Part shown: in pieces, positions 6,279-29,226 of the stretch
How positions within the stretch are numbered: the first letter of the stretch is position 1
Layout: every line of letters begins with the position of its first letter
From: Candidatus Thorarchaeota archaeon
GTDB lineage: Archaea; Asgardarchaeota; Thorarchaeia; Thorarchaeales; Thorarchaeaceae
DNA length: 35,633 nucleotides
Direction: 5' to 3'
Assembly (NCBI GenBank): GCA_016839445.1
Contig: JAEOUG010000173.1
Coordinates: forward strand, 1-35,633
Program-made: the position numbers and the translations under genes
Notes under the pieces: model-generated
Seen by the model: only the letters and a program-made list of their open reading frames with translations
What the model was told of the DNA's origin: nothing
Database searches by the model: none

Positions 6279-8246
6279 ATGCCTGAGAAGCGAATTGGCG
6301 TCTTCCTGTGCCACTGCGGCAGTAACATCGCCGGAGTGGTCGACATCAATAAGGTCAAGGAGAGTCTAAAAGGAGTACCAAACGTTGAGGTGGTCGAAGA
6401 CTACAAGTACGTATGCTCCAAGCCAGGCCAGCAGATTCTCAAAGATGCAATAGCGAAGAACCGTCTCAACGGGATCGTAATAGCATCATGCTCACCAAGG
6501 ATGCACGAACCCACATTCAGACAGACACTGCGCGAAGTGGGCATGAATCCCTTCCTTCTTGAAATCGCAAATATCCGAGAGCATGTATCATGGATTCACT
6601 CCGACAACCCTGAAGCGGCAACAAAGAAAGCGATAGACTTGGTCAAAATGGCGGTGGCCAGGGCAAGACTGCTCGTAGCACTTGATGAGCCTGAAGTGAA
6701 GATACGCAAGTCTACCCTCGTTGTGGGAGGAGGCATAGCGGGCATCTCGGCATCCCTCGATCTTGCAGACGCAGGGTTCAAGGTCTACCTTGTGGAGAAG
6801 GAGCCGAGTATTGGGGGGAAGATGTCCAGGTGGGACAAGACCTTCCCTACACTGGACTGCTCAAGCTGTATTCTCACCCCTCGAATGGCCGAGGTTGGAA
6901 GTCATCCTAACGTCGAGCTCTTCACAATGGCAGAGGTAGAAGATGTTCAGGGATTTGTGGGAAATTTCGAGGTCAAGATACGACAGAAACCCAGGTATGT
7001 GATAGCGGACAAATGCACCTCCTGTGGCGACTGCTCCGAGATATGTCCAGTGGACGTGCCTTCTGAGTTCGACGCGAATCTTAGCTATAGGAAAGCAATC
7101 TACATCCCCTTCGCTCAGGCAGTTCCTTCGACATATCTTCTGGACATGGACAATTGCTTGGGTGTTGATGCCGTTCGCTGCGGCAAGTGCAAGGACGCAT
7201 GCGAAGCAGAAGCAATCAACTATGACGATCATGAGAGAATCATCGAGATTGAGGTTGGCACCATCATAGTTGCCACAGGCTTCGAAATCTTCGATGCAAC
7301 GAAGAAGGAGGAGTACGGGTACGGAGTCTTCCCCAATGTGGTGAACATGGCAGAAGTGGAGAGAATGCTCAGCTCTGCAGGTCCTACAACGGGTCATGTG
7401 GTTAGGCCATCTGACCTCCAGGAACCGCAGAAAGTGGTCTATATCCAATGCGTCGGAAGCCGAGATGAACGGACAAACAAGTACTGCTCTCGTATCTGCT
7501 GTATGACGGCCATTAAGCAGGCCCGAATGATACGTGATAAGCTCGGAGCTGAAGTGTACGTGTTCTACATCGACCTGCGGACCTTCGGGAAAGGCTACGA
7601 GGAGTTCTATGAGGCTACTGCGTCAGCAGGAGTCACCTTTGTCCGGGGGAGAGTGGGAGAGATTCTTGAGAACGAGAAGACGCATCTACTCACTATTCGA
7701 GGTGAAGACACACTACTGGGCCAGCCCATAGAGCTGAGGGATGTAGACCTGGTCGTTCTATCGACTGGCGTCGTAGCGCCGGAGTCTGCTAAGAGGATAG
7801 CCCATGCGTTGAACCTCAGTCTTTCTCCAGATGGCTTCCTTCTTGAGGCTCATCCCAAGCTCAGGCCCGTTGACTCGTTCAATGATGGGATTTTCGTCGC
7901 CGGAATGGCTCAAGGTCCCAAGGACATCCCTGACACTGTGGCTCAGGCGAAAGCGGCTGCAGCAGGAGCAATGGGTCTGATGGGGAAGGGGAAGATCAAT
8001 GTGGAACCCTACTACTCCGTTGTGGACGAAGACAAGTGTGCTGGCTGTCAGGTGTGCATCTCGGTCTGTCCATACAATGCGATTGTCCTAAACGAGAGAG
8101 GATTCGCCGAGGTCAATCCTGCACTGTGTAAGGGGTGCGGTACATGCACCGCAACGTGCGCAAGCGGAGCCATCTCTTCACAGCACTACACCGACGGGCA
8201 GATCTCTGCGATGATCTCAGAGTACTTGGCCCAAGACAAGACGTAG
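6279..8246 (+). CDS. hdrA: Heterodisulfide reductase subunit A-like flavo/Fe-S protein
   Basis: IGVFLCHCGSNI, GGGIAG FAD motif, KTFPTLDCSSC, IQCVGSRD...YCSRICC, EAHPKLRPV, C-terminal 2x[4Fe-4S] ferredoxin. Confidence 0.96.
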   Translation: MPEKRIGVFLCHCGSNIAGVVDINKVKESLKGVPNVEVVEDYKYVCSKPGQQILKDAIAKNRLNGIVIASCSPRMHEPTFRQTLREVGMNPFLLEIANIREHVSWIHSDNPEAATKKAIDLVKMAVARARLLVALDEPEVKIRKSTLVVGGGIAGISASLDLADAGFKVYLVEKEPSIGGKMSRWDKTFPTLDCSSCILTPRMAEVGSHPNVELFTMAEVEDVQGFVGNFEVKIRQKPRYVIADKCTSCGDCSEICPVDVPSEFDANLSYRKAIYIPFAQAVPSTYLLDMDNCLGVDAVRCGKCKDACEAEAINYDDHERIIEIEVGTIIVATGFEIFDATKKEEYGYGVFPNVVNMAEVERMLSSAGPTTGHVVRPSDLQEPQKVVYIQCVGSRDERTNKYCSRICCMTAIKQARMIRDKLGAEVYVFYIDLRTFGKGYEEFYEATASAGVTFVRGRVGEILENEKTHLLTIRGEDTLLGQPIELRDVDLVVLSTGVVAPESAKRIAHALNLSLSPDGFLLEAHPKLRPVDSFNDGIFVAGMAQGPKDIPDTVAQAKAAAAGAMGLMGKGKINVEPYYSVVDEDKCAGCQVCISVCPYNAIVLNERGFAEVNPALCKGCGTCTATCASGAISSQHYTDGQISAMISEYLAQDKT

Positions 8247-8260
8247 AGGCAGAGACGACA

Positions 8261-8869
8261 ATGAGAGACGTCGGCGTGGCAATACTCGCCGGAGGGGCAT
8301 CGAAGAGGCTGGGAGAACCGAAGGCGCTTCTGCAGTTTCATGGCAGGCCTCTCATCAGCCATGTACTCGAGGTGGCCAAGAAGCTGACATCTGACGTCAT
8401 GATAGTAGTGTCCGAGGAAACTCAGATCGAACAACTCAGGGACTACATTGGCGACGTCCAGATACACTACGACCCAGAAGACTCAATCCGGTGCGCATTG
8501 ACGGGTGCCATCACGGCATTCGAATTCGCTCCGAAGAAGTACACTCAGCTACTCCCGGTTGATGCCCCTCTTGTAGAGCCTGATATCATACGATTCCTCG
8601 CAGATCTCGCACCGGGGCATGGAGCAGTCGTCCCGTCGTGGCCCAACGGATACATTGAACCGCTCCACTCGACATACCATTCTGAGCATGCCTACGCCCT
8701 CGGACTTGAGGTGATGGAACAGGGGCAGCGTAGAATGAGTGACTTGCTTCATAGACTACGCAATGTGCTGCACGTTTCGACCGAGGCTCTGAGAAAGATG
8801 GACCCCGACCTCAAGACCTTCAAGAACATCAACAGCCTTCAAGATCTGAAGAGAGAAGAACGAGGCTAG
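8261..8869 (+). CDS. mobA: Molybdenum cofactor guanylyltransferase (MobA-like NTP transferase)
   Basis: ILAGGASKRLGEPKALL, LLPVDAP, IEPLHSTY, FKNINS; ATG 8261 just after the hdrA stop. Confidence 0.88.
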   Translation: MRDVGVAILAGGASKRLGEPKALLQFHGRPLISHVLEVAKKLTSDVMIVVSEETQIEQLRDYIGDVQIHYDPEDSIRCALTGAITAFEFAPKKYTQLLPVDAPLVEPDIIRFLADLAPGHGAVVPSWPNGYIEPLHSTYHSEHAYALGLEVMEQGQRRMSDLLHRLRNVLHVSTEALRKMDPDLKTFKNINSLQDLKREERG

Positions 8870-8893
8870 TTGTGCGATTCAGAACACAAGAGA

Positions 8894-9042
8894 TGTTATG
8901 TATCAACTCAGCAGATGTGTGTGTGGGAGTGTGCTGTACCGTGTCCCGCAGTTGGAGCTGTCAACTCACTCATTCTCGGGAACCCGGATAACCCATTCTC
9001 ATCTAAGGTCAGTCGCGGGTACAGGCGCCTCCCATCATAACA
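8894..9042. other. Imperfect long inverted repeat / structured element between convergent mobA and hypD
   Basis: Nested complements: TGTTATG 8894-8900 with CATAACA 9036-9042; TGGGAG 8924-8929 with CTCCCA 9029-9034; CTGTACC 8934-8940 with GGTACAG 9018-9024. Confidence 0.5.
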
Positions 9043-10117
9043 CTAGGTTCTCATGTCTGATTCTACATGTTCCCTCATGGCCAACCATGCAGGGGCCATA
9101 GGGGGCCTCCGGTCTGCAACGGGTGCCGAACAACTTACACTCTGTTGGGTCGATCATTCCAAGTATGACCTCATGGCACCTGCAACCCGGAAGGATGTCA
9201 ACGGACTCGAACTCCGGATAGTCGAATCTCTTCCTCGCATCATGGTGCTCGTACTCCTCCCGAATGTAGTACCCAGAATCTTTGATGACTCCGAGACCAC
9301 GCCAAGGAGCGTCTGCAATCTTGAAGGTCTTTTCTAGAACATGCTTCGCTGCAGGGTTTCCATCAGGACTTACCACACGAGTGTACTCATTCTCCGACTC
9401 TGACCGGCCCTCACTGATCTGCAGGGCAATCATCCGGATTGCCTCAAGGACATCGAGTGGCTCGAAACCTGCTGCAACACAGGGAACGTGATGTTTCTCA
9501 GCAAACGGTTGAAATGCCTTAGTACCGATAATCGTAGAAACATGCCCGGGAGTGATGAATCCGTCGACGCCAAAGCCTTCGATGTTGACTAGAATCTCCA
9601 TGGCCGGGGGGATGACCTTCAGCGAGGTCAGTAGGCTGAAGTTCTCTGGAGGACCTCTCAGAAGCTCAAGCGCGAATGTCGGTGCTGTTGTCTCGAAACC
9701 GACCCCTACGAGAACGACTTCCTTGCCGGGGTTCTTCCGAGCAATCTCAACAGCTTCACCTGCCCCGTAGACAATTCGCACGTCAGCTCCCTCAGTCCGT
9801 TCATTTGCGAGAGAGGAACTTGTCGAAGGAACCCGAATCATGTCACCGAAGGTTGCCACGATGTGACCTTGTCTAGCAAGCTCGATTGCCATATCGACGT
9901 CGTGAGCAGCACAGACACAGACGGGACAGCCAGGACCTGCCACAAGCGTCAGGCCTTCAGGTAGCAGTGAGCGGAGACCATGCTGACTTATGGTGTCTTC
10001 ATGTGTGCCACAAACATGGACAATTCTCGTAGCCCTTCCATCGTTCAAGCGAGCTATCTCACTGACTAGTCCTTTGGCCAGTCTAGCATCGCGGAACTTC
10101 GTCTGATTGCCAGTCAA
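9035..10117 (-). CDS. hypD: [NiFe] hydrogenase maturation protein HypD
   Basis: HVCGTH, GPGCPVC, GFETT, PGHVS, GFEPLD, C-terminal GCRC...C..FG..C.P..P.GPCMV..EGTC. Confidence 0.97.
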   Translation of the reverse strand: MTGNQTKFRDARLAKGLVSEIARLNDGRATRIVHVCGTHEDTISQHGLRSLLPEGLTLVAGPGCPVCVCAAHDVDMAIELARQGHIVATFGDMIRVPSTSSSLANERTEGADVRIVYGAGEAVEIARKNPGKEVVLVGVGFETTAPTFALELLRGPPENFSLLTSLKVIPPAMEILVNIEGFGVDGFITPGHVSTIIGTKAFQPFAEKHHVPCVAAGFEPLDVLEAIRMIALQISEGRSESENEYTRVVSPDGNPAAKHVLEKTFKIADAPWRGLGVIKDSGYYIREEYEHHDARKRFDYPEFESVDILPGCRCHEVILGMIDPTECKLFGTRCRPEAPYGPCMVGHEGTCRIRHENLVL

Positions 10118-10183
10118 GGTTCACTCAACGTCTTGATTCGTGGCGTCCACATAAAAAGGGGAACTTGTGGACATACAATCAGT

Positions 10184-10510
10184 CTACTTGATGATGTCAG
10201 CACCGTCAAGGATAGCCAGGGCCTCTCCTACGGTGATGGAGAGCTTACTGGCAAGCTCCTTAGGAGAAATCTCAGGGTTCTCCGAGAGGACATGCTGCCG
10301 AGCATATCCAGCCAGGTTAGCGAATCGAGGGTTGCTTCGAACGGTCTCAAGCAGGATATCCCACAGTGGGTGAAGCTTGAAGTCTTTCACATCAATCTCA
10401 ATGGTTCTCCCAGGCCTGTAGCGAGGCTTCATATCAGATAGATCAACCTCCTCGCTTGGTTGCAGGTCTTCAAACCGTTTCGTTAGTTTCTCCTGTTTTG
10501 GTGATGTCAA
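10184..10510 (-). CDS. Small hypothetical protein with C-terminal HTH-like motif (start uncertain)
   Basis: ENPEISPKELASKLSITVGEALAIL looks like an HTH. Possible starts are TTG 10510 or ATG 10567; TTATAA at 10585-10590 argues against the 160-aa version. Confidence 0.6.
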   Translation of the reverse strand: MTSPKQEKLTKRFEDLQPSEEVDLSDMKPRYRPGRTIEIDVKDFKLHPLWDILLETVRSNPRFANLAGYARQHVLSENPEISPKELASKLSITVGEALAILDGADIIK

Positions 10511-10723
10511 AGTTCTCGTCCCAACCTGAGTTATCCCGGCGAATCCACTGACGTAGATTACATGCATCTTCCCACGTAGGTCTGTTATAAGGCTTCGCGT
10601 ACTCGAGGTCAAGTCATACCCTTCGGCGCGCTCGCTTCCGACAGCGCTGACCAACAAGGGCACCAAACAACAAGGTTTAACAACGGTTCTCCAGAGCCTA
10701 CCTCGTTCAACTTCATTTGAGGA

Positions 10724-11029
10724 ATGGAATTATTGCCTAGTGGCATTCGTAGGATTGTGCTTGACGTTCTGAAGCCTCACACCCCGAGGCTCACGGATCT
10801 TGCACTCATGATATCACAGGATGAGAGGGTAAGCGGTCTGAACATCTCTTTGAAGGAAGTCGACCAGAACACCGAGAGCATCACCATCACCCTAGAGGGC
10901 GATGATTTGAAGTTCGACACGATCAAGGAGATCCTTGAGCAAGCCGGAGCGGTCATTCATTCGATTGACCAGGTTGTGGCGGGCAGGCGATTCGTTGAAG
11001 AAGTCACCCTGCAGCCAGAGAACTCGTAG
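10724..11029 (+). CDS. DUF211 (COG1888) family protein
   Basis: IRRIVLDVLKPHTP...EVDQNTESITITLEG...GAVIHSIDQVVAG signature. Confidence 0.9.
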   Translation: MELLPSGIRRIVLDVLKPHTPRLTDLALMISQDERVSGLNISLKEVDQNTESITITLEGDDLKFDTIKEILEQAGAVIHSIDQVVAGRRFVEEVTLQPENS

Positions 11030-23003: not shown

Positions 23004-23537
23004 ATGACCTGGGATGATGACCGCGACGAGGCAAGGAGAAACATCCGACGCTGGTTCGGTGACTTCCTGCCCGAGGAGATGTTTCGGCAAATCGAAGAGA
23101 TGATGGACCGCATGATGAGAGATATCCAGGACGGCTCACTCATCAACCCAGAGGATTTCGAGGAGATGGCAAGAGACCTCGAAGGCACTAGCCCATTCGT
23201 CTTCGGCTTCTCGATGAACGCAGGTCCTGATGGACGGCCGGTCATCAAACGATTCGGAAACCCTGCTTCTGAACCAAGCGGCGAGAGAGCGTCAAGTCTA
23301 GAGCCTCTCGTTGATGTGGTGGAAGAAGACGGAGAGATCGTGGTGGTGGCAGAGGTCCCTGGTGTGGAGAAGGATGAAATCAGAGTCAAGGTGAAAGGAA
23401 CAACACTGACAATCCACGCCGACAATCCAGCGAGACCCTATCACAAGGAAGTGGAGCTACCAGCAAAGGTTTCCAAAGAAGATGCCAAGTCAGCAATCAG
23501 AAACGGAGTACTAGAGGTGCGCCTGAAGAAGGCTTGA
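23004..23537 (+). CDS. hsp20: Small heat shock protein Hsp20 (alpha-crystallin domain)
   Basis: FVFGFSMNAGPDGRPVIKRFGN, EPLVDV, VAEVPGVEKDEI, NGVLEVRLKK. Confidence 0.95.
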   Translation: MTWDDDRDEARRNIRRWFGDFLPEEMFRQIEEMMDRMMRDIQDGSLINPEDFEEMARDLEGTSPFVFGFSMNAGPDGRPVIKRFGNPASEPSGERASSLEPLVDVVEEDGEIVVVAEVPGVEKDEIRVKVKGTTLTIHADNPARPYHKEVELPAKVSKEDAKSAIRNGVLEVRLKKA

Positions 23538-23549
23538 GGTGACCTGGAC

Positions 23550-23999
23550 ATGCAGAAACGAAAATCAAAGAAAATCAACAAACTCAGAGGCCAGCGCAGC
23601 GCCGGGTATGGATATACAAAGGGGCATCGAGCCTCCGGACAACGTGGCGGAAAGGGTATGGCTGGGACTAAGAAACACCACTACATCAAGGTCATGCAGG
23701 AGAACCCTCGTTACTTCGGGAAGTGGGGCTTCAAGAGACCCCAGAAGGTCATTGAGGATCTTGAGGCAGTGAATGTGGGCACGATTGATGAGGCTGCCGA
23801 CAGACTCGTAGAGAGGGGTATGGCCACCGTCAAAGGGAAGAAATACACAATCGATGTTGCGAAGTTGGGCGTTGACCGCATCCTTGGCTCAGGGAAGGTC
23901 ATTCGGAAGCTCGACTTGGTTGGTGTCAAGGCAATCACACCTAGAGCAAGAGAGAAGATAGTGTCTTCCGGTGGCTCAGTAGACCTTCCTGAAGAGTAG
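23550..23999 (+). CDS. rpl15: 50S ribosomal protein uL15
   Basis: KLRGQRSAGYG...GQRGGKGMAG..KH, YFGKWGF, ILGSG, AREKI...GG. Confidence 0.96.
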   Translation: MQKRKSKKINKLRGQRSAGYGYTKGHRASGQRGGKGMAGTKKHHYIKVMQENPRYFGKWGFKRPQKVIEDLEAVNVGTIDEAADRLVERGMATVKGKKYTIDVAKLGVDRILGSGKVIRKLDLVGVKAITPRAREKIVSSGGSVDLPEE

Positions 24000-24020
24000 C
24001 TGGAACCTCAGACCACTAGC

Positions 24021-24026
24021 TTTAAA
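24021..24026 (+). promoter_or_regulatory. Putative internal TATA box for secY
   Basis: TTTAAA in the uL15-secY gap, followed by AGGAGG SD before the TTG start. Confidence 0.5.
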
Positions 24027-24073
24027 GGCACTGTCCATCAGGGACCGCCGAAGCACCTGCAGGAGGCAATAGA

Positions 24074-25594
24074 TTGCCAAGTACATTCCTCAAAGCTCTA
24101 TCACCATTCGTCAGGATAATGCCTGAAGTGAAGCAGCCCGATAGAGACGTAAGCTTCCGAGAGAAGTTCGTCTGGACGGCTATAGTGCTGATAGCCTTCC
24201 TCATCATGTCCCACATGCCACTCTTTGGCGTGGACAAGGATGTTGGAACCGACTATCTTTGGGCGATGCGAGTCATCCTCGCCAGCACTCGCGGAACTCT
24301 CATGGAGCTGGGAATTGGTCCAATAGTCACTGCAGGTCTGGTCATGCAGCTCCTACAGGGTTCGAAGATCATCAATGTTGATTTCAGCGACCCTGATGAT
24401 CGAGCACTCTTCACCGGAGGACAGAAAGTCCTGGCCATGTTCATGACGGCGTTCCAAGCCATAGCCTACATCATGGGCAATGCCTACGGACCACTCGGCC
24501 CCGAGGCAGCTCTGATTGTCTTCGCACAGCTGTTCATCTCAGGAATCGTGATCATTCTCATGGATGAACTTGTGCAGAAGGGATGGGGTCTCGGTTCAGG
24601 AGTATCGCTGTTCATCATGACCAATGTAGCAGGGCAAGTCATCTTCAACTCCCTGAACTTCATCGAGCTGGAGCAGGGCTCTCCCATTGGTTACATGGGT
24701 GGCACTCTGGCAGACCCGGTACCTACGAACCTTCCAAAGGGCATCCTTGCAGCCATAATTGCCAATCTTCTGCGCGCAGTCGGCATTGGTACAGCTCAGG
24801 GCGACCCTGTTGACGCTCTCTGGCTTATCGTAAGGAATGGATTCGACCCGAGCATACTCTCGCTGATCATCACCTTCGTAATCTTCGGAGCAGTCATCTG
24901 GATGGAGTCAGTGCGTGTGGAGATACCTCTCCAGTATGCGAAGTATAGAGGTATGAAGGCGCGCTACCCGATCAAGTTGCTCTATACGTCAAACATTCCA
25001 GTGATTCTCGCGCAAGCACTCTATGCCAACATCCTCTTCTTCGGGCAGATAATATGGGGCAGCTTCAATTCGGACGGCAACAATCCGTTTCTTAGCTGGA
25101 TTGGCATCTTTGTAAGGGACCCAGACTCAGGAAGGATGGAAGCTGTAAGCGGCCTGGCGAGATACATCACTCCACCACAGGGTATATTCTCCCTGTTGCA
25201 GGAGGGTGATGGCTGGTTGCATGTCATAATCTATGCGAGTCTCATGATCCTGCTCTGCTGGGGATTCTCGCGTATTTGGGTTGACATTTCTGGAATTGCT
25301 CCTCGAGATGTTTCTCGGCAACTCCTCAACTCGGGCTATATCGTCCCTGGTTTCAGGAGAAGTGAGAAGGTTCTCGAGCGTCTCCTTGAACGCTACATAC
25401 CTGTGGTGGCGGGACTTGGTGGATTCCTAATAGGAATACTCGCGGCCGCAGCAGATGTCATGGGTGCCCTAGCAAGTGGAACGGGTATACTCCTAATGGT
25501 CAGCATCATCAAGCAGTACTACGAGCAACTGGCCAAGGAGCAACTTGCAGGGATAGGTGGCGAAGGAGTCGCCGGACTACTGGGAATCCTATAG
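24074..25594 (+). CDS. secY: Preprotein translocase subunit SecY (Sec61-alpha homolog)
   Basis: GTLMELGIGPIVTAG, KGWGLGSGVSLFI, YPIKLLYTSNIPVI, PGFRRS, SGTGILL. Confidence 0.98.
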   Translation: MPSTFLKALSPFVRIMPEVKQPDRDVSFREKFVWTAIVLIAFLIMSHMPLFGVDKDVGTDYLWAMRVILASTRGTLMELGIGPIVTAGLVMQLLQGSKIINVDFSDPDDRALFTGGQKVLAMFMTAFQAIAYIMGNAYGPLGPEAALIVFAQLFISGIVIILMDELVQKGWGLGSGVSLFIMTNVAGQVIFNSLNFIELEQGSPIGYMGGTLADPVPTNLPKGILAAIIANLLRAVGIGTAQGDPVDALWLIVRNGFDPSILSLIITFVIFGAVIWMESVRVEIPLQYAKYRGMKARYPIKLLYTSNIPVILAQALYANILFFGQIIWGSFNSDGNNPFLSWIGIFVRDPDSGRMEAVSGLARYITPPQGIFSLLQEGDGWLHVIIYASLMILLCWGFSRIWVDISGIAPRDVSRQLLNSGYIVPGFRRSEKVLERLLERYIPVVAGLGGFLIGILAAAADVMGALASGTGILLMVSIIKQYYEQLAKEQLAGIGGEGVAGLLGIL

Positions 25595-25601
25595 TGGATA
25601 T

Positions 25602-25617
25602 GGGGGCTCCAGCCCCC
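25602..25617 (+). terminator. GC-rich hairpin just after the secY stop
   Basis: GGGGGC-TCCA-GCCCCC; no U-tract, so a terminator role is uncertain. Confidence 0.3.
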
Positions 25618-25636
25618 TCCCACTCAGGTGGCGTAG

Positions 25637-26104
25637 ATGATAAGAAAGGACAAGGTATTCGCATACATAACACAGGGCACAAGACTTCTTGTCTTCCTAG
25701 AGCGCGGATTCGAGGGATTCGGACTTCAGATTCCTGCAGGTTCACCCCATAAGGAGGAGGCCCTTGAGAAGGCAGTGCTAAGAGAGAGTCGAGAAGAGAC
25801 AGGGCTCAATGGACTGAGGTTGGTCGCGTACCTCGGCTCAGTGAGCGCAGACCAGACGAAGTACGGCATCAACGAGATTCATGACAGACATTTCTATCAT
25901 CTCGTCTATGAAGGAGTAGCTCGGGACACCTGGGAACACGTTGAGGCGGATCCCAGCATTGTGACCGAATGCACTCCCGAGGTCATAGTCTTCGAATTGC
26001 GCTGGATAGACCTGAGCCTCGAGATACCCACTCTTGCAGAGGGACATGACGCATACCTTGGAGTCCTTCTGGAGATGCTTGATACGAACCAGAAGATTCT
26101 CTGA
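25637..26104 (+). CDS. NUDIX hydrolase
   Basis: Nudix box QIPAGSPHKEEALEKAVLRESREETGL. Confidence 0.92.
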   Translation: MIRKDKVFAYITQGTRLLVFLERGFEGFGLQIPAGSPHKEEALEKAVLRESREETGLNGLRLVAYLGSVSADQTKYGINEIHDRHFYHLVYEGVARDTWEHVEADPSIVTECTPEVIVFELRWIDLSLEIPTLAEGHDAYLGVLLEMLDTNQKIL

Positions 26105-26188
26105 CGGAGTTGGCAAGCCTTATCAACTCCCACGGTTCTCTCTGCATCGGCGTGGACGATGAGATAACCACCGGGCCGGCGATTATCA

Positions 26189-27190
26189 GTGCTTGTTCAG
26201 ACAATCTACACAACTGAGCAGCTTGTAGCTGCGGGAAGCATTCTGCTTCTCCTACTGCTAATCATCGTATGGGTTGTCAGAGGTGCCACTGACGAGGCCA
26301 GCACTGAGTTCTTCGATAGGAAGGACTTGCGGCCGGCGACACCTGCCCCATCGCAGAAGGCAGAGGCCCCTCTGCGTCCAGATGTTGAAGCAGTGAGGGT
26401 CCTGAGAGGGGGAGCTTTCGTAGGCAACAGGATGCGGTTCAAGGCGAAGGTAGTTAACGAGTCTGAATACACCATCACCGATGTCACAGTCCATCTTGTG
26501 TCATATCCGAGAGATGCACTCCTGCTTGATGGTAGAGATGATGATGTGCGCTTTGGGAAGATCGAGCCAGGCGCTTTTCGAAGCCCATCTTTCGAGTTCA
26601 TCCCAACCCAAGACTGTGTCAAGGGAGAGATTGTTGCAGGAGTCACATACGTAGACTACAGGGGCAAGGCCCATAGCCTCACAACAAGGCCGTACACAAT
26701 CAGGGCGGTCTGTGATCTGCTGATTCCTGATGACATAACCCCTGAGGATTTCAGGATTGCACTGCAAGGATTTCATAGCGGAGATGTGGTGGTGTCGGTG
26801 GAGGAGTGGACGCCTCGGAAGATGTTTGAGATGGCGGGGCAGATTCTTACGGAATCCAATTTCAGCACTGTGCGCTCTCATTTCGAGGTGTCTGATGGAT
26901 TTGCAGAGGGCAAGATTGAGGGCTGGGCTAGGGGGAAGTACACGGGGAAGCAACTGGGAGTCGAGCTGATTATAGGAGGCCCACAGAACGAGGGCGGAGC
27001 GTCCTGCACCGTCAAGGTTTCAGGAGAGGATGGCGCAATGGTTGTGCCTGCGCTCGAGGACCTCAGGTCCAGACTGTGTTCTTGGCTCTGTCCCCAATGC
27101 CGGAGCGCGCTGTCCGCTGATCAGGTCACGGTTCTTCGGAGAGGCGGCGTAATTGATTGCTCATACTGCGGGACGTCAATCGGTAGGTAG
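26189..27190 (+). CDS. Membrane-anchored protein: N-terminal TM, Ig-like and platform (adaptin/coatomer appendage-like) domains, C-terminal Zn ribbon
   Basis: TM SILLLLLLIIVWVV; beta-sandwich RFKAKVVN...ITDVTV...KIEPG; linker DLLIPDDITPEDF; CPQC...CSYCG. Confidence 0.75.
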   Translation: MLVQTIYTTEQLVAAGSILLLLLLIIVWVVRGATDEASTEFFDRKDLRPATPAPSQKAEAPLRPDVEAVRVLRGGAFVGNRMRFKAKVVNESEYTITDVTVHLVSYPRDALLLDGRDDDVRFGKIEPGAFRSPSFEFIPTQDCVKGEIVAGVTYVDYRGKAHSLTTRPYTIRAVCDLLIPDDITPEDFRIALQGFHSGDVVVSVEEWTPRKMFEMAGQILTESNFSTVRSHFEVSDGFAEGKIEGWARGKYTGKQLGVELIIGGPQNEGGASCTVKVSGEDGAMVVPALEDLRSRLCSWLCPQCRSALSADQVTVLRRGGVIDCSYCGTSIGR

Positions 27191-27200
27191 ACGATAGGCC

Positions 27201-27671
27201 TCATCGGGATCTGCCCTTCTTGATAACGAAGAAGAGCACCACGCAAGCTACACCGACTGCACCTGAGAAGGTCAGCAATTCAAGCAGGGGACTCGCCCAT
27301 ACCGTTGTCGATGTCGATGCTGTTGAGGTTGTGGTGTCAGTGAGAATCGTGATGGTGGGTGTGCTCGCGTATAGAAGGTGCGTATTGACAAGCACATAGT
27401 CGTCAAAGAGGACAGACACAAGGCTTGGAGCACAGCTGAAGTTCGAGGGTAGGCGGAATCGGCAGACTGTGTCCCCTGATATCTCAGAATTCCTATACGT
27501 CAGGGTGCCATTTGCGGTGGTCACCTCTATTGTCAGATTCTGGGTGTACGTGAGTGTGTGGAGTAGCTCATTGAGGTCTCCAATCTCAAGATCAAGCGTT
27601 CTTGAGGGGAGGTAGTAACTCGCGTTCCGCGTTTCCCAGGGCGCAAACCCTAGGTTCGGCGGCTCTTGCAC
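27201..27671 (-). CDS. Cell-surface-type protein or 5'-truncated remnant with Thr/Ser linker and C-terminal TM anchor (start uncertain)
   Basis: TDTTTSTASTSTT linker, TM LLTFSGAVGVACVVLFFVI, basic tail KKGRSR, several N-x-S/T sequons; no signal peptide or convincing start. Confidence 0.55.
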   Translation of the reverse strand: MQEPPNLGFAPWETRNASYYLPSRTLDLEIGDLNELLHTLTYTQNLTIEVTTANGTLTYRNSEISGDTVCRFRLPSNFSCAPSLVSVLFDDYVLVNTHLLYASTPTITILTDTTTSTASTSTTVWASPLLELLTFSGAVGVACVVLFFVIKKGRSR

Positions 27672-27733
27672 AGAAGGAATTATAACGTGTGCAGATGACC
27701 GAGCGCTCAATCAGGGTAATGGTGAGCAGCCAG

Positions 27734-28324
27734 ATGAGTGAAGCAAGAAACGTTGTGATAGTGACTGGGATTCCCGGTGTAGGAAAGACGACCGTCATCA
27801 ACTCAGCTGTGGAGAAAGTCAAGACAGACCACGGCGAAGATGTACTTGTCCTCAACTTCGGCACAGAGATGTTTGAAGTGGCCTCAAAGGCCGGCCTTGT
27901 CAAGGATAGAGATGAGATGCGAAAGATGCCGACTGCAAAGCAGCGGGAGAACCAGAAAAAGGCGGGCGAGGCGATTGCTAGGAAGGCGGAGAAGGCCAGG
28001 GTGATCGTAGACACACACACTCTCATACAGACCAACAACGGATACCTTATCGGTCTACCCGAGTGGGTTGTTCGGGCCATCTCACCAAAGACTGTAGTGC
28101 TCGTAGAAGCAGATTCCGAGAAGATTGCAGGCCGACGCTCTAACGATCCATCACGAGCGCGAGATGCTCAGACCGCCCAAGACATCCAAGTTCATCAAGA
28201 AATGTGCAGAGCAGCGGCTGTCGCGGTTGGTACACTGACTGGAGCAACAGTGAGAATCATTAAAAATCGCGAGGGCAAAGTTGAAGAAGCCGCATCTGAA
28301 TTGGCACAGACGCTGATGGAGTAG
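27734..28324 (+). CDS. adk: Adenylate kinase (archaeal type)
   Basis: VTGIPGVGKTT, NFGTEM, RDEMRK, VDTH, YLIGLP; ATG 27734; AATTATAA at ~27678. Confidence 0.95.
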   Translation: MSEARNVVIVTGIPGVGKTTVINSAVEKVKTDHGEDVLVLNFGTEMFEVASKAGLVKDRDEMRKMPTAKQRENQKKAGEAIARKAEKARVIVDTHTLIQTNNGYLIGLPEWVVRAISPKTVVLVEADSEKIAGRRSNDPSRARDAQTAQDIQVHQEMCRAAAVAVGTLTGATVRIIKNREGKVEEAASELAQTLME

Positions 28325-28331
28325 CTCAAGA

Positions 28332-28895
28332 ATGCAGGATCTCCTCGTAGACTTCATGAACTGGTTCATTGTGACTTTCCAGGTCGTAAGGTATCGGCCG
28401 TACGCGCCATTATTCGTGATGCTAGTCTCTGTGTCAGTGTCCACTATGAGTAATCTTGCCATGAGGAGATTCGCTGACATGAGGCGCCTGAATAGGTACC
28501 AGCTTGAGATCAAGCAGTTCCGGGAGATGGAGAAGGAGGCCCAGAGGACTCAGAATGAAAAGCTCCTGCGTAAGGTGAAGAGGAGAAAGGCATACATCGA
28601 CAACATCCAGAGAGGGATGCTTGGAGCAAGGTGTAAACCTTCGCTGATATTCATCATTCCATTCATGTTCATTTTCTCGATGCTCAGGGGATTCTACAAC
28701 GAGGGAGGAACAGACCTGATTGTGGCAGTGTTACCCTTTGATGCTCACGAGCTTCTTCCTTTTGTCAATGGAATGCTTGGCACACCAGTCGACGGTGGCT
28801 TCGGAATGACATTTTGGGGCTTCTACTTCTTGGTCGGACTAGGTCTCTCAAGCATACTGCAACGAATTATGGGAACTCAGGTCATGACTGCCTAG
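28332..28895 (+). CDS. DUF106 / EMC3-TMCO1 (Oxa1 superfamily) membrane insertase
   Basis: TM, coiled coil, KP motif, TM, then FWGFYFL; conserved position after adk. Confidence 0.88.
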   Translation: MQDLLVDFMNWFIVTFQVVRYRPYAPLFVMLVSVSVSTMSNLAMRRFADMRRLNRYQLEIKQFREMEKEAQRTQNEKLLRKVKRRKAYIDNIQRGMLGARCKPSLIFIIPFMFIFSMLRGFYNEGGTDLIVAVLPFDAHELLPFVNGMLGTPVDGGFGMTFWGFYFLVGLGLSSILQRIMGTQVMTA

Positions 28896-28959
28896 GGCCC
28901 ACCGGTTCCCTTAAAAGCCAAGAACAAAGGGGAGCCACGTATAGAGAAGGTGCTAAGCT

Positions 28960-29226
28960 ATGCCACGACCCGGCCAACTCACTAGAGGAAGAGCGAATAG
29001 AGCAGTTAAGACACCCGGAGGCAGGATTGTAGTCCACCGGCGCAAGGTCTACAAGACAGGGGGAGTGTGTGCAGCGACTGGAGTGAAGATGCAGCTACCC
29101 AGGAAGTCGAAGCAGGTCCTGAGCAGGAAGTCTAGTCGCTCGTCCAAGCGGCCGAATCGCCCCTATGGTGGCGTCCTTTCACCCAGGGCACTCCGTCGCG
29201 GCGTCATTAGTCAGACACGAGAATAG
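28960..29226 (+). CDS. rpl34e: 50S ribosomal protein eL34
   Basis: MPRP, VKTPGGRIVVH, KRPNRPYGGVL. Confidence 0.95.
   Translation: MPRPGQLTRGRANRAVKTPGGRIVVHRRKVYKTGGVCAATGVKMQLPRKSKQVLSRKSSRSSKRPNRPYGGVLSPRALRRGVISQTRE

Follow-up and report, generated by a model that had tools for sequence, protein, structure and literature searches.

Adaptor ears are the interaction hubs of eukaryotic vesicle coats, and their origin is part of the wider question of how membrane trafficking came about. The locus described here raises the question of whether such an ear can exist in an archaeon as a protein tethered directly to the membrane. It lies in contig JAEOUG010000173.1 of Candidatus Thorarchaeota archaeon (assembly GCA_016839445.1), of which positions 1 to 35,633 form the window, that is, the whole stretch of DNA that was analysed. 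In this window, the product of a gene close to secY (the target from here on) had been read, from the letters alone, as a membrane-anchored protein resembling the appendage (“ear”) domain of adaptins and COPI, with an added zinc ribbon. We find it reasonably probable that the target is a bitopic protein with a cytoplasmic, archaeal adaptin appendage-like region and a C4 zinc ribbon, acting as a membrane-tethered hub. The ear-like reading of the module itself is partly supported, by sequence evidence that is convergent but indirect.

We first consider the gene. The open reading frame (ORF) is a real gene and not a chance frame, because it has 219 relatives in a 90% clustered database (E<=1e-3) and 425 in a 50% representative library. 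The position of the start codon is the same in the closest relatives (alignment A2). The layout proposed in the initial annotation, with a transmembrane (TM) helix, a Pro/Ala linker, a sandwich, an alpha/beta domain and a CxxC...CxxC element, was borne out by the ORF, by hydropathy and by the sequence (Table 1). A hydropathy scan of the 333-aa protein gives one hydrophobic segment, the CxxC pairs are found at residues 301-304 and 324-327, and the linker AVCDLLIPDDITPEDF and the strand-like peptides cited there are all present in the translation. As for known families, the target has no match in Pfam at E<=0.1, none in NCBIfam below E 0.1 and none among PDB sequences.

Nearly all named relatives in the 90% clustered database carry source annotations as Thorarchaeota hypothetical proteins. 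The conserved part is a module of about residues 65-333, whose hidden Markov model (HMM) starts at about residue 61-65 of the target and which is found C-terminally in proteins of 264 to 2867 aa. At E<=1e-5, this module is present in 70 of the 76 genomes of the source's own taxonomic family and in 142 of the phylum's 301. The number of matches in a genome runs from 1 to 8 or more, and these are often tandem paralogues; the source's own genome has four clear family members. A metagenome scan with the single target protein gave no relative, and a second one with alignment A2 gave 36 loci. In terms of architecture, we counted 313 stored full proteins, locus ORFs being left out: 80 have a single N-terminal anchor, as the target does, 60 have a large N-terminal region and a TM helix after it, multi-pass proteins number 42, a TM helix is lacking in 83 and 48 are of other types. 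The target belongs, as a “headless” member, to a group of paralogues that is expanded in the source's taxonomic family. A separate paralogue of about 760 aa, lacking a TM helix, comes from contig C151 of this genome (locus L003, 1468-3747, minus strand). This frame recurs in many genomes of the family, with the module at residues 485-753, an N-terminal part of about 480 residues without domain assignment and, in some representatives, a second, weaker copy of the module. The neighbours of the 759-aa copy (DUF2070, flavoprotein and HD-associated genes) offer no functional lead.

The initial annotation had left it to be checked on which side of the membrane the module lies, and the positive-inside count answers: inside. 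The module is predicted to face the cytoplasm, with about 10 N-terminal residues outside, because in 184 of 207 proteins the lysine/arginine excess around the TM helix nearest the module is on the module's side (on the opposite side in 5) and because 304 of 363 family rows have all four zinc-ribbon cysteines. The long relatives begin with a signal-like hydrophobic segment, have extracellular-type Pfam domains (NosD/beta-helix, PKD-like, Big_13, PQQ and SBBP propellers, TSP3, SBP_bac_5) and have 30-60 residues between a TM helix and the module that follows it. It is barely credible that the domains after the TM helix form an extracellular, S-layer or adhesin-like Ig module. The sandwich does have a CARDB-like sequence pattern, and many domains of surface type are found joined to the family, but in the long members these domains and the signal-like N-terminus lie across the TM helix from the module. 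The charge bias and the C4 ribbon speak against this placement too, as do soluble fusions of the module with cytoplasmic partners (Ras GTPase, HEAT repeats, PCI, Vps28-C).

The evidence for an ear-like sandwich comes from the Alpha_adaptinC2 profile (PF02883). In a scan of 301 Asgard genomes it matched in 31 at E<=0.01, in none above the Pfam cut-off, and in none of the 76 genomes of the target's own family or the 14 control genomes. The best matches are ORFs of about 328 aa from a Loki-type family. The target-family profile (A1) matches the same ORFs at E 1e-9 to 2e-4, and hhalign aligns A1 with the Loki family alignment (A3) at 96.9% probability (E 1.9e-10) over 248 columns, which cover the sandwich, the alpha/beta domain and the zinc ribbon. 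Pairwise BLASTP of the target against a Loki 327-aa protein is not significant, and the link is by profiles only. Among the A3 members, 18 of 21 match PF02883 (best E 2.9e-5, 24-26 bits, with a cut-off of 27.6) and 4 of 21 match PTHB1_GAE; no further Pfam family recurs there apart from zinc ribbons. Since 11 of the 15 best PF02883 loci in the 301 genomes overlap matches of the module HMM, with starts no more than about 15 bases apart in 8 of the 11, the sandwich of the module is, judged by sequence profiles, what the adaptin-ear profile detects in Asgard genomes, below threshold and in Loki-type relatives only.

For the second domain we turned to coevolution, using mean-field direct coupling analysis (DCA). 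Of 515 HMM domain matches, 444 covered at least 85% of the first 236 columns; once rows with more than 95% identity had been taken out, the alignment comprised 363 rows (effective number of sequences, Neff, 220). As an internal positive control, pairs of zinc-ligand cysteines came out at ranks 30, 54, 84 and 127 of 36046. In a column-shuffle control, 59 real pairs scored above the shuffled rank-10 score. The sandwich region shows hairpins and ladders, for example R73-K85, D98-K124, Y94-R158 and E147-G159.

In the alpha/beta domain the contacts suggest the order linker helix, b1 (196-204), helix (208-224), b2 (226-235), b3 (239-248), b4 (255-262), b5 (273-282) and helix (284-297). The b2-b3 hairpin is seen in F232-A239 (rank 5), T227-I243 and S235-E240, and the b3-b4 pairing in K242-I262 (rank 26) and R248-Q255 (rank 77). 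Strands b4 and b5 are joined by Q255-E280 (rank 14), E259-K276 (rank 18) and I261-T274 (rank 114), a ladder that is 3rd of 33153, and b1 and b5 by H196-G282 (rank 13) and G198-A283 (rank 185). The helix 208-224 packs on b4 and b1 (A216-I262, rank 12), and the helix 284-297 on b5 and b1. All four strand pairings have at least one contact among the 59 pairs mentioned above. The resulting topology, b1-helix-b2-b3-b4-b5-helix, antiparallel with sheet order 1-5-4-3-2, is consistent with a TBP-like platform, without being proof of one. The TBP domain is described in the relevant part of PMC3597702 as a five-stranded antiparallel sheet with two covering helices in the order B1-H1-B2..B5-H2, and the adaptin/COPG platform is there called structurally homologous to it. 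A Walker-A-like reading of the stretch GWARGKYTGK was rejected: its spacing is not GxxxxGK[ST], and by coevolution the stretch is the b3-b4 hairpin loop.

Several results weigh against the ear-like reading. No adaptin or COP appendage family of Pfam matches the target or any of the 73 Thor-type members (E<=0.05), every PF02883 match lies under the Pfam cut-off, and PDB sequence searches with the target, A1 and A3 gave no appendage chain; A1 found only weak PEX19 and LysW-type zinc-ribbon matches, and A3 only zinc-ribbon proteins. The platform families of Pfam (B2-adapt-app_C and others) are absent from the target, from the 73 Thor members and from the 21 Loki members, the latter scanned at E<=1, and PF09066 matches in just 1 of 301 genomes (E 0.0027, in a 916-aa frame). 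The motif FxxxW, which the passages of PMC2262067 on the platform give as defining the ligand-binding site in AP-2 and COPI, is missing from residues 176-297 of the target, and F-x3-W occurs at one column in 18 of 363 family rows. At Neff 220 the signal from coevolution is modest, with just 12 pairs above every shuffled score, and the b1-b5 pairing is based on few contacts. In terms of structure, the Atlas model of the Loki member P0300 (predicted local distance difference test, pLDDT, 0.81) cuts both ways. It has as neighbours a 788-aa PCI/DDRGK cluster (TM-score 0.61), a 243-aa Methanobacteriota cluster (0.62/0.81) and a eukaryotic “Adaptin C-terminal domain protein” cluster; the presence of the latter two counts in favour of the reading, but the adaptin cluster scores only 0.35 over 143 aligned residues, lower than a DUF11 neighbour at 0.42. 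[quoted passage not shown]

A last point on this side is a near-invariant polar cluster, formed by D142, C143, D156, R172, C175, D176, K250, Y251, T252 and D281 (codons of C143 at 26615-26617 and of C175 at 26711-26713 of the window). Coevolution locates it at the interface between the sandwich and the alpha/beta domain, through A173-W246, R172-D281, D176-Y251/T252 and C143-C175 (rank 60). Both cysteines are present in 353 of 363 rows, neither in 8, and one alone in 2. This coupling suggests a metal site or a disulfide, and the interface could have a ligand- or metal-binding role instead of an ear function. We know of no such polar/Cys cluster in eukaryotic ears.

Taken to their end, these points describe a generic Ig/CARDB/DUF11-type sandwich, joined to an alpha/beta domain unrelated to the platform, that would work as a cytoplasmic sensor or output domain in which the Cys/Asp/Lys/Thr cluster binds a metal or ligand or catalyses a reaction. 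We hold this explanation to be unlikely, though deserving of attention. A weak DUF11 match in one Loki fusion (E 0.0041) and the large receptor-like outer domains of many members fit it as well. However, PF02883 does not match the many other Ig-like domains of these genomes, nor any of the control genomes, and most of its best loci are the module; the GAE-type families are the only ones besides zinc ribbons to recur in the Loki relatives; and the predicted topology of the second domain is TBP-like, as published for the platform. Moreover, conservation of the polar cluster does not extend to the Loki relatives (A1-A3 alignment), which makes it a lineage addition rather than a core property of the module. 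The ear claim of the initial annotation stands in part: the domain order, the homology to Loki proteins with sub-threshold PF02883 matches and to the region beside Vps28-C, and the TBP-like contacts are in its favour, while the platform families and FxxxW did not appear. As a separate observation, at about residues 170-182 of the A3 Loki family a motif [FY]-x3-F is found near the start of the alpha/beta domain in at least 11 of 21 members; it is reminiscent of the FxxxW/FxxxF platform motif in the passages of PMC2262067, to which it may correspond.

The zinc ribbon brings in another coat. Weak zf-Sec23_Sec24 matches occur in 4 of the 73 members (best E 3.2e-4), and a sandwich, an alpha/beta domain and a zinc-binding element are all part of the module, as they would be in a relative of the Sec23/24 COPII coat. 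Even so, such a relationship has next to no likelihood. The order of domains in Sec23/24 is not that of the module, as the zinc finger stands at the front there; the alpha/beta trunk, of vWA type, is also far larger than the antiparallel five-stranded second domain of roughly 120 residues predicted here. There is no match to the Sec23 trunk, sandwich, helical or gelsolin families of Pfam in any member, and other zinc-ribbon families, weak as their matches are, are commoner (Zn_ribbon_9 in 16/73, LysW-like in 15/73).

Returning to the appendage-like reading, the partners to which the module is joined are informative about its possible role. Three Loki fusions were found. An 801-aa protein (L082, 49-2454, plus strand) combines a Ras-family GTPase, the module and a zinc ribbon; a 624-aa protein (L072, 634-2508, plus strand) has a beta-propeller (weak BBS2_Mid, E 0.0038) before the module and zinc ribbon; and a 788-aa protein (L076, 985-3351, minus strand) has zinc fingers, DDRGK/E3_UFM1_ligase/PCI winged helices, the module and a VPS28 C-terminal domain. 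In the source's own genome, a 457-aa paralogue has HEAT_2 at residues 111-184 and the module at 220-451 (HMM E 2.6e-44). The gene of this paralogue belongs to a conserved cluster on contig C168 (locus L158), made up of Ras GTPase, WD40 propeller, HEAT plus appendage, a second Ras GTPase and a small ORF. Of 29 orthologous loci, several of which are truncated at contig ends, all 29 have a Ras-family neighbour and 23 have a WD40 neighbour. No paper naming such a GTPase/WD40/HEAT-appendage cluster was found in the literature searched. We also note that its propeller, solenoid/appendage and small GTPase resemble the parts list of a coat. Fusion and neighbour partners are of cytosolic, trafficking or signalling type, and they fit the hub role of appendages.

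From these elements we can draw the following picture. About 10 residues would lie outside, followed by one TM helix, a linker of roughly 35 residues and the cytoplasmic module, in which an Ig-like sandwich would pack on a five-stranded TBP-like alpha/beta domain and be followed by the C4 zinc ribbon. Across the family, the same module makes up the cytoplasmic tail of single-pass proteins whose outer domains are large (beta-helix, PKD-like, Ig-like, beta-propellers, solute-binding), and is also carried by multi-pass proteins and soluble fusions. Given the published role of appendages and the fusions with a Ras-family GTPase, HEAT repeats, a beta-propeller and Vps28-C, the module would most likely act as a membrane-tethered protein-protein interaction hub, as adaptor ears do, linking membrane proteins with partners in the cytosol, for example small GTPases or ESCRT/sorting components, with the zinc ribbon as an additional, second binding surface.

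A more far-reaching version, which we consider improbable, takes the Thor-type family as receptor-like membrane proteins with their own adaptor ear: outer domains of many kinds, or none in the case of the target, would be connected by a single TM helix to an appendage and zinc-ribbon hub recruiting a cytosolic proto-coat-like machinery. One candidate for this machinery is the Ras GTPase / WD40 / HEAT plus appendage / Ras GTPase cluster of the same genome, and the “headless” target could then be a minimal membrane docking site or a regulator. If true, this would mean an archaeal cargo-receptor/adaptor sorting system older than the eukaryotic AP/COPI coats. If the module does bind cytosolic partners, its proteins would be the first receptor-plus-ear fusions, through which cargo selection in Asgard archaea could be put to the test; should it be just a generic Ig and sensor domain, we are dealing with an ordinary lineage-specific membrane-protein family. 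The locus adds a large, tandem-multiplied Asgard-lineage family with an ear-like module and zinc ribbon as the cytoplasmic tail of varied membrane and surface proteins, an invariant Cys/Asp cluster that is specific to the lineage and lies at a domain interface, and fusions or neighbourhoods with small GTPases, HEAT repeats and beta-propellers.

As for the genomic position, the NUDIX gene, the target, a minus-strand ORF and adk lie between secY and the DUF106 gene (Table 1), and the target starts 595 nt after the end of secY on the same strand. Contigs from four runs of four studies tile positions 23500-29000 with zero differing letters, and piecewise they span the junctions secY/NUDIX, NUDIX/target and target/169-aa ORF/adk. 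The local gene order is real in the population and not an assembly artefact, because contigs of four studies bridge the junctions without difference. A real gene order, the proximity to secY and the membrane anchor with its cytoplasmic domain could together suggest an accessory factor of the Sec translocon or of a DUF106/EMC3-type insertase. This is very unlikely in view of the related loci: none of 40 (L017-L056) has secY, NUDIX, adk or an EMC3-like gene near the family member, and in none of five relatives (L190-L194) does the target gene follow secY. The interval between secY and adk (here 25595-27688) varies in the genus, and in 1 of the 5 relatives adk and the EMC3-like gene come directly after secY. 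The closest full-length relatives (55-62% identity) are in tandem arrays or on other contigs. Those of 60-62% identity stand beside other members, with three more copies at L020, where an EamA transporter gene directly follows the relative and a helicase gene ends the array, and one more at L021; the 55% relative at L017 has no further family member within the stretch examined. The position beside secY appears incidental, a lineage-specific accident, and no meaning was detected in the place between secY and the DUF106 gene to which the initial annotation had drawn attention.

Two neighbours deserve a short description. The 169-aa ORF, which overlaps the start of adk by 22 nt, includes a stretch rich in Thr/Ser and a hydrophobic tail at the C-terminus. 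It matches the C-terminal part, about 140 aa, of frames of 650-690 aa in 17 of the 76 family genomes (best E 9e-18), and a similar piece adjoins secY in one relative (G275). Perhaps this ORF is a short paralogue, or else what is left of a surface protein. Furthermore, an HSP20/alpha-crystallin gene (23004-23537, plus strand) is located within the ribosomal-protein operon, just upstream of an L15-like gene, and the same is seen in 4 of 5 relatives.

Table 1. Positions of the target gene, its parts and its neighbours in the window, and of the GTPase/WD40/HEAT-appendage cluster on another contig of the same genome.
Feature	Position	Strand	Description	Basis
Target, whole gene	26189..27190	+	333 aa, GTG start, stop codon 27188-27190	ORF list; homologues; orthologue start
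Single N-terminal transmembrane helix	26219..26278	+	about residues 11-30	hydropathy peak 2.67
Pro/Ala/charged linker	26279..26380	+	about residues 31-64	variable and gapped in alignment A2
Ig-like beta-sandwich, adaptin-ear-sandwich-like	26381..26713	+	about residues 65-175	coevolution; Loki-family alignment
Alpha/beta domain, candidate TBP-like “platform”	26714..27079	+	about residues 176-297	coevolution contacts
C-terminal C4 zinc ribbon	27080..27187	+	C301, C304, C324, C327	Cys conservation; coevolution
secY	24074-25594			Pfam
NUDIX gene	25637-26104			Pfam
169-aa ORF	27201-27710	-	convergent with target	no Pfam match
Adenylate-kinase-like gene (adk)	27689-28324			Pfam
EMC3/TMCO1-like (DUF106) gene	28332-28895			Pfam
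Cluster L158 (contig C168), genes in order	6702-7271, 7276-8412, 8392-9765, 9772-10338, 10577-10948	+, -, +, -, +	Ras GTPase, WD40 propeller, HEAT + appendage, Ras GTPase, small ORF	Pfam; module HMM

Finally, the target can be set beside known systems. Compared with the ears of AP-2 alpha/beta2 and COPI gamma/beta, it has in common a sandwich of about 110 residues followed by an alpha/beta domain of about 120, for which the contacts predict five antiparallel strands with helices on one face, as in the TBP-like platform described in the section of PMC3597702 used here. One paralogue in the same genome has HEAT repeats before the module, as adaptins do. Whereas these ears follow a HEAT trunk and hinge, the target module follows a TM helix and linker, it adds a C-terminal zinc ribbon and the invariant Cys/Asp cluster, and it has no FxxxW, no platform-family match and no PF02883 match above the cut-off.

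With CARDB and DUF11 Ig-like domains, the target shares a sandwich of seven to eight strands with a similar alternating pattern, and the DUF11 signals in one Loki fusion and among the Atlas neighbours have been described above. CARDB and DUF11 domains are usually extracellular, whereas the target module is predicted to be cytoplasmic and is always followed by the alpha/beta domain. No CARDB or DUF11 match was found in the target or among the 25 families listed for the 73 members.

The soluble Loki-type family of about 329 aa (A3) has the same three-part module, a similar length and a C-terminal CxxC...CxxC. Unlike the target, it has no TM helix, about one copy per genome and a very uniform length, and unlike the Thor-type proteins it lacks the DC...CD / GKYTGK cluster; its identity to the target's family is about 18%. 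Homologues of the adaptin appendage Pfam domains exist in Asgard archaea, not fused to one another, according to the passages of PMC10307638 on these domains, and the Loki family is probably among the “Alpha adaptin C-terminal domain” homologues mentioned there.

The closest comparison is with the archaeal appendage regions of a 2024 mBio survey of ESCRT systems (PMC10936438). In the parts of this survey that deal with them, the adaptin appendage is defined as an Ig-like sandwich plus a TBP (helix-grip) domain, and Asgard proteins with Vps28-C are said to often have an appendage region of Ig-like and TBP-like domains. “Meth_adaptin” loci are also described there, with one appendage-region protein carrying a zinc ribbon and another in which a transmembrane linker leads to a fused GOLD domain. 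Our module HMM matches the Loki 788-aa protein at residues 451-702 in L075 (E 1e-20) and at 452-657 in L076 (E 3e-17), where it is flanked by PCI/DDRGK (198-434) and VPS28 (687-778; 25.7 bits, cut-off 24.5). We infer that this stretch is the “appendage region” of that survey, because it is the only unassigned stretch there and because PF02883 matches at the same place in L061, L067 and L069 of the same family. VPS28 (PF03997) was not found in the source's own genome, which is 89.8% complete, and this absence is weak evidence, as the search control was likewise without a match.

The two groups therefore compare as follows. The Ig-like and TBP-like domains predicted for the target's family answer to the survey's description of its regions, variants that have a zinc ribbon or a TM link are seen in both, and the Methanobacteriota cluster of 243 aa is structurally near the Loki member. 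With archaeal appendage-like regions of this kind already in print, the initial annotation's view of the architecture as undescribed is not supported. No paper naming a Thor-type family with TM-anchored appendage and zinc ribbon was found, in a search that did not extend to the supplementary tables of PMC10936438 and PMC10307638, which may list it. Unlike the regions in the consulted parts of the survey, the target and its paralogue arrays lie outside ESCRT gene neighbourhoods, and the family is multiplied, often in tandem, and joined to many different outer domains. As far as the searched literature goes, then, the archaeal appendage as a kind has been described before, and what is new is the TM-anchored, multiplied Thor-type family, with its zinc ribbon and its own Cys/Asp cluster.

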